Below, in pieces: positions 23,888 to 26,610 of a stretch of 64,000 nt of DNA. The translations under genes and the position numbers were made by a program. This DNA is from Escherichia phage slur02, in sequence record NC_028927.1; one strand, written 5' to 3'. The notes under the pieces are model-generated. The model worked only from the letters and a program-made list of their open reading frames with translations. It ran no database searches and was not told the origin of the DNA. Within the stretch, counting starts at the first letter, position 1; each line of letters begins with the position of its first letter.

Positions 23888-24088
23888 ATGGTACAAAAAT
23901 TAATGGCACTTGTTGATGCCATAAAAGGTAATAAAAAACGTATAGCTTTTACTATTTCTGCTATGGTAGGAATTTTACTCTGGAACTTTATTTTATCACC
24001 TGTTGCAATTGCACATGGTATTAATATTCCAGTAGTTACTCTTGATACATTCGTAGATTTAGCATTTGCTTTAGTTGGGTTAATTTAA
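23888..24088 (+). CDS. candidate small hydrophobic protein (65 aa) on opposite strand
   Basis: Only plus-strand ORF lying in a minus-strand intergenic region; AAGGAGG 4 nt before ATG, though that sequence also overlaps the gene 56 middle promoter on the other strand. Confidence 0.25.
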   Translation: MVQKLMALVDAIKGNKKRIAFTISAMVGILLWNFILSPVAIAHGINIPVVTLDTFVDLAFALVGLI

Positions 24089-25113
24089 ATCTTAGCATAT
24101 TTAGATAGCCGCATTTTAGCCATCAACCCCTGGGCAATATTATTTTTCATATATTCCATAATTTGTTCAGGGGTTGCACCTTCCTTTCTAATCATATCAT
24201 TAACATCTTTTGATTTCCAGGGAGATTTATCCCAAAACATAACCCTTTCTCCTGCATCAACTAATTTAGTCATTCGCTTAATAGTGTCAGGATGACGAGG
24301 TTCATTATCTAAAACCCACACTCGTCTATCTTTAAATGGAACAACTTCTAGGTCTAATTGACCACCCGTAATAGCTATACCATTTTCAATAAAAAGTGAA
24401 TCTATAGGTCCTTCTAGAACATATACATCACCATCTTTAACTCGTTCGACTCCATAGATTTTTGTTGCTTCAGGATAAGCTTTGATAGTGATATATTTTT
24501 GGGGAGCATCTTTCTTTAATGCACGTCCTTGAAAAGACTCAGCTTTTCCATTAGCATTATAAATTGGAATAACAAGACGAGGCTCAGGTATTTCCTTTTT
24601 ATATGTTCCCGGTGCTATGCTATTAACTAATTTAGGCCATTCAGTTGTAAACCAAAGATATTTCCATTTATCCTTTGGAATACAACGAGCTTTTACATAT
24701 TTTATAATTGGATGGTCTTCCGCCAGTTTATCTAATCTAACACATGACGGAAGAGATTTAATTATTTTCTTCTCAGGTTGTTTAGGAAGTTCTTTAGGTT
24801 TTTCTACTGGACGACTTTTACCTTTTTCTTTTCTTATTTCAAAGATATACTCACGATATAAATCAGGTTCAAACTCCTTTAAATATATTCCGATTGGTGC
24901 ATGATAGTTACAGTTATAACAATGAATATTTCCTTCATTATTATCACCATAATACCATCCACGAGCTTTATTCTGGTCGGTTTTTGAATCTCCACAAACA
25001 GGACATCTAAACCGTAATTTAAAAGTTGAACTATTATTTACTTGTGTGAATTTAGGTAAATGAGCTAATGCACGGTATGCAAACTCATTATCAATCCAAG
25101 GTATTGATGACAT
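24085..25113 (-). CDS. 61: gp61 DNA primase
   Basis: 342 aa as in T4 gp61; N-terminal zinc ribbon CPVCGDSK...CYNC. Confidence 0.9.
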   Translation of the reverse strand: MSSIPWIDNEFAYRALAHLPKFTQVNNSSTFKLRFRCPVCGDSKTDQNKARGWYYGDNNEGNIHCYNCNYHAPIGIYLKEFEPDLYREYIFEIRKEKGKSRPVEKPKELPKQPEKKIIKSLPSCVRLDKLAEDHPIIKYVKARCIPKDKWKYLWFTTEWPKLVNSIAPGTYKKEIPEPRLVIPIYNANGKAESFQGRALKKDAPQKYITIKAYPEATKIYGVERVKDGDVYVLEGPIDSLFIENGIAITGGQLDLEVVPFKDRRVWVLDNEPRHPDTIKRMTKLVDAGERVMFWDKSPWKSKDVNDMIRKEGATPEQIMEYMKNNIAQGLMAKMRLSKYAKI

Positions 25114-25115
25114 TT

Positions 25116-25280
25116 TTACTCTTCTTTTTCTTTAGATTCCTCTTTTTTCTTTTTAGGAATCTGTTCAGGGCCTTTATTTACTACAGCGCCTGACGTTGTT
25201 CCAATAGAGATATTTTCAGGATTACCACCTGAATCTCCAGCGACCATATCTTCTTTAATAAATTCTTTATATGTTTTCAT
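25116..25280 (-). CDS. small protein (54 aa), 61.1 position
   Basis: Hand-translated MKTYKEFIKEDMVAGDSGG...; TAA-T-ATG coupling. Confidence 0.5.
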   Translation of the reverse strand: MKTYKEFIKEDMVAGDSGGNPENISIGTTSGAVVNKGPEQIPKKKKEESKEKEE

Positions 25281-25325
25281 ATTAACCTCTATTCATAAAA
25301 GCATTAAAAATTTGGTCATCAATAG
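25278..25325 (-). repeat. 48-bp direct repeat copy 1 (gene 3' end plus stop/start junction)
   Basis: Near-identical to 25636..25683 (1 mismatch). Confidence 0.8.
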
Positions 25326-25638
25326 ATGGAATAGCAACCTTTTCGGCATCATTTAGCAAATCATTAATTTCATCAGATAGCATAACACATGTGCCTTTAT
25401 TTCCTGTAATTGTTACTGCACAATTACGAACGTTTTCTTTATCAAATTTTAGGTTAATATTTTCGTAGTGAAAATCCTTTAATGCCGAATATATCTTTAA
25501 AATGAAATTGTCTTTTACTACAATAAACCCAACTTCACTATTAAAACGTGGTTCATGGAAACTGTAATAAACCTTTTCATCTATGAAATCGTATGAAATT
25601 TTTTCCATTTTTAAATATGAAAATTCAGAACTATACAT
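25282..25638 (-). CDS. hypothetical protein (118 aa)
   Basis: Track ORF; C-terminal 14 aa shared with 25640..26266. Confidence 0.5.
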   Translation of the reverse strand: MYSSEFSYLKMEKISYDFIDEKVYYSFHEPRFNSEVGFIVVKDNFILKIYSALKDFHYENINLKFDKENVRNCAVTITGNKGTCVMLSDEINDLLNDAEKVAIPSIDDQIFNAFMNRG

Positions 25639-25683
25639 ATTAATCTCTATTCATAAAAGCATTAAAAATTTGGTCATCAATAG
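25636..25683 (-). repeat. 48-bp direct repeat copy 2
   Basis: Near-identical to 25278..25325. Confidence 0.8.
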
Positions 25684-26266
25684 AAACATTTACTTTAGAC
25701 TGTTTTTCAGATGGCAATTCATATCCACATATTACAATTTTATGATCAATATCAAAATACACAGAAGCAATATGATTAATGATATTTTCAGTGAAGTCTA
25801 AATCGACATCAATATCTTTTTGACCAAATCCCAGAGGATAAATAATGCGAGTAATTCGATTATCTTTAACAAAGATTCCACCGACATACTCTGTACTGCG
25901 TTTAAAGTCTACACGCCGACGAAATGAAAAATATTCAGGCTCTTTATGAGCTCGGCTCATAGGACACAACGAATAACTAGAATAAGAGATGTCAAATCCT
26001 ACGCCTTCGATATGAGCCAAAGTGTCATGATTAAACCAATTATAATCGTACGCCAAATCCATTAGATTATAATATGTAAAAGGCACCGGATTAACATCAT
26101 TAGTCACAAGCATGTAATTAGCAACTGCTATAATTTCATTGTTTTTAACGAATACAAACCGTGATTGATGCGAATGACCTGGACCCGCGTTTTCACGATT
26201 AATGATATAACACTGGGCACCTTTATATTTGTATGTATCTTTGCACTTGTGCATTTGATAGAGCAT
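25640..26266 (-). CDS. hypothetical protein (208 aa)
   Basis: Track ORF; shares C-terminal SIDDQIFNAFMNR with neighbour. Confidence 0.5.
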   Translation of the reverse strand: MLYQMHKCKDTYKYKGAQCYIINRENAGPGHSHQSRFVFVKNNEIIAVANYMLVTNDVNPVPFTYYNLMDLAYDYNWFNHDTLAHIEGVGFDISYSSYSLCPMSRAHKEPEYFSFRRRVDFKRSTEYVGGIFVKDNRITRIIYPLGFGQKDIDVDLDFTENIINHIASVYFDIDHKIVICGYELPSEKQSKVNVSIDDQIFNAFMNRD

Positions 26267-26559
26267 TATTCACCTACCACTTCAGCGATGATATTTTTGT
26301 TATTAAAGTTTTTATCGCAATACAGAACATAATTATACTGCATTACACCACCAGACTTAAGTTGTTTTTGCACTTCAGCTTTCATTTCAGGGCGATCGCG
26401 CTCAACGATATTCATAATATCTGCTTCAATTTGAGTTTCAACTTCAGTCTGATCCGCAGTCATAGACCATTCGCACAAATCTTTATCATAACCTGCCATA
26501 GCAGGCTGAGCAGCACAAGAAGCTAAAGCAAAAATTGTGGCAAAGATAAATTTTTTCAT
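26266..26559 (-). CDS. sp: Spackle periplasmic protein
   Basis: 97 aa with signal peptide; position between 61 and 41. Confidence 0.75.
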   Translation of the reverse strand: MKKFIFATIFALASCAAQPAMAGYDKDLCEWSMTADQTEVETQIEADIMNIVERDRPEMKAEVQKQLKSGGVMQYNYVLYCDKNFNNKNIIAEVVGE

Positions 26560-26573
26560 GATAATCTCCTCAG

Positions 26574-26610
26574 TAATTTATGTTTATATAGTATCTCAAT
26601 TTCCAACAAA
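26574..26610 (-). promoter_or_regulatory. early promoter upstream of sp
   Basis: GTTTAC, 17 nt, TACTAT. Confidence 0.5.

Follow-up and report, generated by a model that had tools for sequence, protein, structure and literature searches.

Gene 61.1 of Escherichia phage slur02 encodes a 54-residue protein, gp61.1, which, judged from its sequence, is a chimera of an internal-protein leader and a copy of the cleavage-site and N-fist segment of the T4 capsid protein gp23. The gene lies in the 64 kb stretch of record NC_028927.1 that was analysed here (hereafter the window, on which coordinates are given unless a locus is named). Its complete open reading frame (ORF), at 25116..25280 on the minus strand, consists of an ATG, 54 codons and a TAA (translation MKTYKEFIKEDMVAGDSGGNPENISIGTTSGAVVNKGPEQIPKKKKEESKEKEE), and a Shine-Dalgarno sequence GAGG was read from the sequence at 25286..25289 (minus strand), 5 nt upstream of the ATG. 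Three parts can be distinguished, all on the minus strand. Codons 1-10 (25251..25280), MKTYKEFIKE, resemble the capsid-targeting sequence (CTS) of the T4 internal proteins (IPs) and end in I-K-E, with a candidate site for the prohead protease gp21 after Glu10. Codons 11-38 (25167..25250), DMVAGDSGGNPENISIGTTSGAVVNKGP, form a module homologous to gp23 residues 66-93, a stretch that contains the N-fist (66-91). Codons 39-54 (25119..25166), EQIPKKKKEESKEKEE, supply a conserved Pro and a basic cluster, followed by a variable charged tail.

The homology to gp23 was found by several comparisons. BLASTP aligned gp61.1 residues 2-38 with T4 gp23 residues 57-93 without gaps (16 identities in 37 positions, E 2e-8), and a profile built from 13 gp61.1 sequences had T4 gp23 as its sole match among all 177,635 distinct PDB sequences, both as the precursor (E 1.4e-5) and as the mature chains (E 6e-4). 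When the gp61.1 and gp23 profiles were compared by hhalign, residues 1-45 of gp61.1 were placed on residues 55-100 of gp23 over 46 ungapped columns (96.7% probability, E 3e-10). A six-frame hmmsearch covering two whole phage genomes and 50 kb of the Klebsiella phage Marfa returned the gp61.1 genes followed by the gp23 genes (E 5e-8 and 7e-7), and most of the weak remaining matches were IP N-termini. Glu10 of gp61.1 aligns with gp23 Glu65, which stands at P1 of the site cut in maturation (LTE/AEIGGD, the slash marking the cut), and Ile8 aligns with Leu63, the aliphatic P3 residue thus being in register; the solved mature gp23 chains have 456 residues, the first of which is Ala66. Residues 11-36 of gp61.1 correspond to gp23 66-91, which are the limits of the N-fist (PMC7136217). 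In the unexpanded prohead the N-fist is disordered and internal and probably contacts the scaffolding core (PMC9546572), and expansion moves it to the outer surface, where it contacts four subunits and helps to form the Soc site (PMC9958956; PMC9546572). The consensus common to both families is G-D-x-G-(4)-N-I-A-x-G-x-T-S-G-A-V-(3)-G-P, the shared invariant gp23 positions being G70, D71, G73, N78, I79, A80, G82, T84, S85, G86, A87, V88, G92 and P93. The basic cluster of gp61.1 aligns with gp23 R100-R101, and in the gp61.1 family alignment P42 and K44 are invariant and K45 is nearly so.

The initial annotation had described everything beyond the leader as Gly/Ser/Lys-rich. This description has to be replaced: the composition is Lys/Glu/Gly-rich (Lys 10, Glu 9, Gly 6, Ser 4), and the rest of the protein is more than a low-complexity stretch, being, on the alignments above, a paralog of the cleavage-site and N-fist segment of gp23. 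The real homology to this segment also accounts for the name 'major capsid domain-containing protein' used by several depositors. An AlphaFold model of gp61.1 alone was disordered (pLDDT 59) and nothing further in it was informative; the module is thus predicted to be disordered on its own, like the same gp23 segment in the unexpanded prohead (PMC9546572). A comparison of the module with the N-fist of the gp23 of its own phage, over 31 unique pairs from IMG/VR, gave 14.63 identities with the own and 14.23 with other gp23 sequences (permutation p 0.03), too weak to indicate co-evolution; over a longer stretch p was 0.09, and the P side was without signal.

For the leader, the T4 N-termini used in the comparison were translated from the T4 record itself. 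Both IPII and IPIII begin MKTYQEFIAE, with which MKTYKEFIKE shares eight of ten residues, and IPI begins MKTFKEFTST...ITE; residues 1-7 of T4 gp61.1 are identical to those of IPI, with Phe at position 4 in both. The likeness to the capsid-targeting leader of the T4 internal proteins, which the initial annotation had proposed on the premise that the internal proteins and Alt start MKTYQEFIAE, is borne out beyond chance; the premise itself is correct for IPII and IPIII but not for Alt, which begins MELITELFDE. Residues 1-10 of IPIII are enough for packaging (Mullaney and Black 1996, as summarised in PMC9026906), and foreign proteins have been packaged into T4 heads by a 10-residue CTS alone (PMC9026906; PMC3012670). 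Targeting acts mainly through residues 4 and 7 of the CTS and processing through residues 8 and 10, and gp21 cleaves after L/I-X-E (PMC9026906), in agreement with the cleavage rule for T4 internal proteins given in the initial annotation. At all four mapped positions gp61.1 has the same residues as IPII and IPIII (Y4, F7, I8 and E10), and I8-K9-E10 constitutes an L/I-x-E site. Far from differing from the real CTS consensus, the leader carries, at the level of sequence, every determinant of a CTS. Position 9, which is not a mapped determinant, is Lys in gp61.1 and Ala, Thr or Asn in IP-type leaders, and the change Q5K is natural in such leaders, since four of the five IP-type ORFs of phage Marfa, the IPIII-like one included, begin MKTYKEFI(A/T)E.

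The degenerate DNA pattern for M-K-T-[YF]-[KQ]-E-F-I was matched once in the window, as against 0.02 matches expected. N-terminal 11-mers of 488 candidate starts were also compared, all against all, across ~164 kb of the slur04 genome (the window together with the loci L006 and L007), and only the two IP genes closely resembled the gp61.1 N-terminus: the IP pair scored 47, gp61.1 scored 36 and 34 with the IPs, the Alt pair scored 36, and unrelated pairs scored at most 25, apart from one pair at 31. On the DNA level, the leader is identical to ipII/ipIII at 26 of 30 nt. The DNA upstream of 61.1 is unrelated to that upstream of the ip genes, so that the likeness is not due to a recent recombination tract.

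Two further observations concern slur04. In this genome, outside the window, a 157-aa ORF of PHROG 2280 (function unknown; L006:11253-11726, minus strand) starts MKSYTQFLNE/A, a CTS-like leader with an L-N-E site that may mark a further head-targeted protein. The same genome encodes two tandem full-length Alt paralogs of 685 and 697 aa (L007:12712-16866, minus strand), both of which start MELITELFD, compared with one alt gene and the remnants alt.-1 and alt.-2 in T4.

The gene itself is, by synteny and sequence, the ortholog of T4 gene 61.1. The window derives from a Tequatrovirus, and its region 24000-26600 is 100% identical to Escherichia phages slur04, slur11 and slur13 and 95-99% identical to hundreds of T4-like phages. 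The local gene order is that of T4 (uvsX-40-41-dmd-61.4-sp-61.2-61.1-61), T4 gp61.1 (NP_049649) differs from the window protein by the single change Y4F (98% identity), and PHROG 1823 (function unknown) was matched end to end (residues 1-54, E 3e-33). The placement of a 54-aa ORF at the 61.1 position, between 61.2/adfA and 61, is thus confirmed by T4 synteny and the PHROG 1823 match. One might still argue that the match of the leader is a chance resemblance, or that the ORF is not a real gene, as it is very short, is compositionally biased in parts and has no Pfam (E ≤ 1) or NCBIfam family. However, tblastn found a homolog in 1421 phage records (hosts Escherichia, Klebsiella, Shigella, Aeromonas, Acinetobacter, Enterobacter, Vibrio and others), and an exhaustive profile search yielded at least 51 clusters at 50% identity. 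In six short-form genes the ratio of nonsynonymous to synonymous polymorphism (pN/pS) was 0.26 for the leader, 0.16 for the remainder and 0.17 for codons 2-42, with pS ~0.6, as expected of a real gene under purifying selection. Together with the frequency of the leader pattern and the genome-wide N-terminus comparison, which places gp61.1 with the IP genes, these data effectively refute that explanation, and chance is excluded.

Homologs of gp61.1 have one of two architectures. Short forms (50-70 aa), found in Tequatrovirus, Krischvirus, Marfavirus and several other genera, consist of leader, module and basic cluster; by eye, ~12 of 17 distinct short-form clusters have an aromatic-x-x-hydrophobic-aliphatic-x-E leader, examples being MKTFKDFINE, MIGFKQFVEE, MKNFNIFYEE and MIKFKDFVES. 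Long forms (130-165 aa, PHROG 2086) have an N-terminal domain of ~100 aa in place of the leader; they come from Slopekvirus, from Enterobacter phage PG7 and its relatives, and from phages of Acinetobacter, Aeromonas and Vibrio. In 49 of the 50 cluster representatives that contain the module, a Glu stands at −5 or −4 relative to the Gly of the GD motif; the form [LI]-x-E is present in 31 and [LIVMF]-x-E in 44 of these 50, long forms included. What is invariant across the family is thus a protease-type site followed by the N-fist copy and then by a basic patch, whereas the N-terminal partner varies. Covariation of the gp61.1 leader with the IP leaders of other genera gave no positive case, and Marfa was a clear counter-example. 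In the whole genome of Krischvirus pEJ01, no IP-like ORF with the gp61.1 leader of that phage, MIGFKQFVEE, was found. UvsW.1 (PF11637), which has the only similar N-terminus there, was considered as a partner of this leader and rejected, the same motif being present in T4-type UvsW.1, so that the likeness reflects conservation within UvsW.1: the protein starts MISFKRFLVE in pEJ01 (L008:40943-41179, plus strand) and MLLEFKQFLYE in slur04 (L007:3832-4062, plus strand), and its F-K-x-F-[LV]-x-E motif, which resembles the CTS pattern, probably belongs to a helix of UvsW.1's own.

In the long form of Klebsiella phage PMBT1 (YP_009626265, 162 aa), the [LIVMF]-x-E site, the motif MVAGDSGG..NIASG.T.G....GP and the basic cluster are the same as in gp61.1 and stand at the C-terminus, and the gene occupies the same position as 61.1, between genes 41 and 61. 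Unlike gp61.1, such long forms lack a CTS and have an N-terminal domain of ~70-100 aa that is confidently predicted and mainly helical (AlphaFold, residues 11-70, pLDDT 87-96), with a module and tail predicted to be disordered. No PDB fold matched the model of this domain, and profile searches with it found only small proteins. Foldseek matched the long-form model to the starts of two BFVD entries, A0A411BBR2 (672 aa, 40% identity) and A0A1B1IT15 (913 aa, 23% identity). The N-terminal domain also occurs without the module in small proteins of other T4-like contigs. Such proteins, with a W.AYKLGIID..G motif, were seen just after a gene 41-type helicase in a 140-kb JGI metagenome contig (L149:8001-8387) and a 14-kb ENA assembly contig (L150:8001-8378), and in the former the next gene encodes a 348-aa product without a Pfam match. 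The domain is encoded by a small gene of unknown function that is deeply conserved next to the primosome genes. Beyond the basic cluster, three homologs (P0039, P0052 and P0057) have an additional domain of ~100 aa, which starts with the CTS-like ...M-N-E-V-x-x-F-K-x-F-[VM]-E-G... and may represent either fused or mis-called neighbours or an internal CTS-like motif.

The reading that we favour, tentatively and somewhat short of even confidence, is that gp61.1 is a prohead-targeted pro-peptide that is cut by gp21 after Glu10. Residues 1-10, acting as an IP-type CTS, would carry the protein into the scaffolding core of the assembling prohead, where gp21 would cut after Glu10 (I-K-E), as it does in IPII, IPIII and gp23. 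The cleaved form would begin at Asp11 (DMVAGDSGGNPENISIGTTSGAVVNK), a predicted 44-residue peptide of 4.6 kDa and pI 5.0 (7 Lys as against 9 Asp and Glu) whose new N-terminus would copy that of mature gp23*, first the N-fist and then a short Lys cluster. Inside the prohead, this free N-fist copy could meet the partners of the gp23 N-terminal region, namely the scaffolding core and gp21, and after expansion its partner would be the capsid surface pocket that takes an N-fist. The peptide might then stay in the head, and possibly be ejected along with the DNA, or be lost like other scaffold fragments. Targeting, cleavage, retention in the head and the action of the mature peptide are all steps that we infer. 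As to what the freed 44 residues would do, we consider it doubtful, if conceivable, that they act as a free-standing N-fist, either in tuning head assembly (in or on the capsid lattice at sites unfilled by gp23, or on the scaffolding core) or in molecular mimicry by which a host immune sensor of capsid protein or prohead-protease activity is blinded. In either case, the T4-like phages sampled would be maintaining a capsid-protein fragment as a gene of its own.

Several observations weigh against a prohead-targeted pro-peptide. The P1' residue is Asp in gp61.1, while compiled T4 gp21 sites have Ala, Ser or Leu, and the predicted mature peptide is mildly acidic (only its KKKK patch is basic) whereas the IPs are basic. 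An N-terminal CTS is absent from the long-form homologs, and the core function of the family therefore cannot depend on the leader. In Marfa, gp61.1 starts MTLLDQYKQSLSE, having gained three N-terminal residues and having Ser in place of Phe7, although it keeps Tyr at −6 and Leu at −2 from the Glu; the Marfa IPs, by contrast, keep the canonical CTS (MKTYKEFIAE). With respect to expression, the T4 61.1 transcript is classed as early, and the protein was undetected in a whole-cell T4 proteome time course (PMC9697503). The transcripts of T4 ipII and ipIII are, however, early as well, their proteins being late (PMC9697503), so early transcription alone does not exclude incorporation into the head. 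Upstream of 61.1 the window lacks the late promoter consensus TATAAATA, with no copy nearby, and T4 coordinates 17-24 kb lack it as well; in T4, late promoters near genes e and 1 precede ipII/ipIII and ipI. The gene is also placed among early anti-defence and replication genes, not among head genes. In the searchable literature we found no detection of gp61.1 in virions or proheads, and nothing on its function, its leader or its homology to gp23; Selick et al. 1993 and Miller et al. 2003, which lie outside this scope, may mention the leader.

The main rival to the pro-peptide reading, which we regard as rather unlikely, is that gp61.1 remains in the cytoplasm as an early mimic of the cleavage-site and N-fist region of gp23, serving either as a decoy or competitive substrate, by which the protease activity of gp21 would be tuned or masked, or as a counter-defence peptide occupying a host sensor that responds to capsid protein or to prohead-protease activity. 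The early T4 transcript and the lack of an upstream late promoter would fit such a role, as would the location of the gene in the dmd-tifA (61.4)-sp-adfA (61.2) block, which has been termed an anti-toxin (anti-TA) island whose remaining genes its authors consider attractive candidates for anti-toxins (bioRxiv 10.1101/2022.04.14.488369). The activity of gp21 is reportedly sensed by the host via L-x-E-containing loops (CBASS CdnG preprint), and gp23 peptides are reportedly sensed by host immunity (Gol-Lit). Moreover, the part of the protein that is conserved family-wide is the cleavage-site Glu with the gp23-like module, whereas the leader varies. A cytoplasmic mimic leaves unexplained, however, why the short forms of many lineages have a leader with the determinants of a CTS. 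A mimic of Gol, in particular, was considered and rejected: the match to gp23 ends where Gol begins (we placed the 29-residue Gol region on the most conserved gp23 stretch, ~93-122), and as the module stops just before the Gol core, gp61.1 is not a Gol mimic. We know of no defence system that reads the N-fist. Nor was homology to known anti-defence proteins found, the family scans giving only PHROGs of unknown function and marginal, leader-only IP-family matches; Dmd, TifA and AdfA of the anti-toxin island have only the neighbourhood in common with gp61.1 and showed no similarity to it in these scans.

The position of the gene allows yet another explanation, which we hold to be improbable, namely that 61.1 encodes a small primosome-linked protein, or is an upstream ORF translationally coupled to gene 61, its CTS likeness being a relic of recombination among the 5' ends of T-even genes. 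Only 2 nt separate the 61.1 TAA from the ATG of gene 61 (25113), and the last codons of the gp61.1 tail overlap the ribosome-binding region of that gene. Even in distant T4-like contigs of marine origin, homologs of the long-form N-terminal domain are encoded in the interval from the gene 41 helicase to the next large gene, although this large gene had no Pfam match and 'primase-like' is our own designation, and the 26 of 30 leader nucleotides identical to ipII/ipIII would agree with a recombinational relic. In Krischvirus and Slopekvirus, however, two ORFs separate 61.1 from the primase gene, and the peptide is strongly conserved (pN/pS 0.16) and homologous to gp23 across the 51 or more clusters. 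The leader is under purifying selection, and the unrelated upstream untranslated DNA speaks against a recent recombination tract.

Directly downstream of 61.1 lies gene 61, the DNA primase gene (24085..25113, minus strand), and the neighbours of 61.1 with counter-defence roles are dmd, tifA (61.4) and adfA (61.2). The late-promoter motif TATAAATA is depleted in this early-gene region: the whole 64 kb contains 3 copies, as against 10.9 ± 3.5 expected from shuffles, and 100 of 100 shuffles had at least 3. Between 61.2/adfA and 61.1 the window has an extra ORF of 118 aa (25282-25638, minus strand; TAA at 25282-25284), where T4 has none. Its product and the C-terminal half of gp61.2/AdfA are diverged paralogs (34% identity over 102 aa) that end alike (...SIDDQIFNAFMNR), and the extra ORF adjoins a 208-aa ORF (25640-26266) that is 98% identical to T4 gp61.2.

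For head assembly, T4 serves as the reference system, and its list of head-targeted proteins (Alt, IPI, IPII and IPIII) has, to our knowledge, long been regarded as complete. The protein gp61.1, conserved in over 1400 phage records, lacks an assigned function. If targeting and cleavage occur as the sequence predicts, it would be a fifth CTS cargo for T4 and the first whose mature part copies an element of a capsid protein. If it is cytoplasmic, it would be a mimic of the capsid or of a protease substrate within a phage anti-defence island, a case that bears on recent evidence for the sensing of capsid proteins and prohead proteases by bacteria. The automatic names 'major capsid domain-containing protein' and 'major capsid protein', which are misleading and are spreading in phage records, are corrected here.

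Compared with gp23, gp61.1 shows ungapped homology over gp23 55-100, with the P1 Glu and the P3 aliphatic residue in register, but at 54 residues it lacks the HK97-fold body (P, A and I domains) and has no match to the Pfam Gp23 family. Where gp23 has its Delta-domain, members of the gp61.1 family have a CTS or an unrelated domain of ~100 aa, and the Gol core that comes next in gp23 is replaced in gp61.1 by a Lys/Arg cluster.

With the T4 internal proteins, gp61.1 shares the 10-residue leader MKT[YF][QK]EFIxE, with the same residues at positions 4 and 7 and at 8 and 10, and the L/I-x-E gp21 site at the end of that leader; both are small, possess a Lys cluster and are encoded in a non-structural gene neighbourhood. 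The mature part of the IPs, however, is folded, basic, hypervariable and of the anti-restriction type, whereas that of gp61.1 is a conserved copy of a capsid segment, predicted to be disordered and to have a pI of 5.0. Gene 61.1 is widely conserved and syntenic beside the primase gene, while the IP genes are hypervariable, and, unlike these, 61.1 has no late promoter upstream. Small internal peptides are also left in the T4 head after cleavage of the scaffold, namely a 2.5-kDa fragment of gp22 and a 3.9-kDa fragment of gp67 (PMC9026906 Table 1). The predicted 4.6-kDa peptide would likewise be a gp21 product of a few kDa inside the prohead, closer in size to these scaffold-derived peptides than to the basic IPs; they, however, are fragments of abundant late scaffold proteins, whereas 61.1 is a dedicated early gene without homology to the scaffold.

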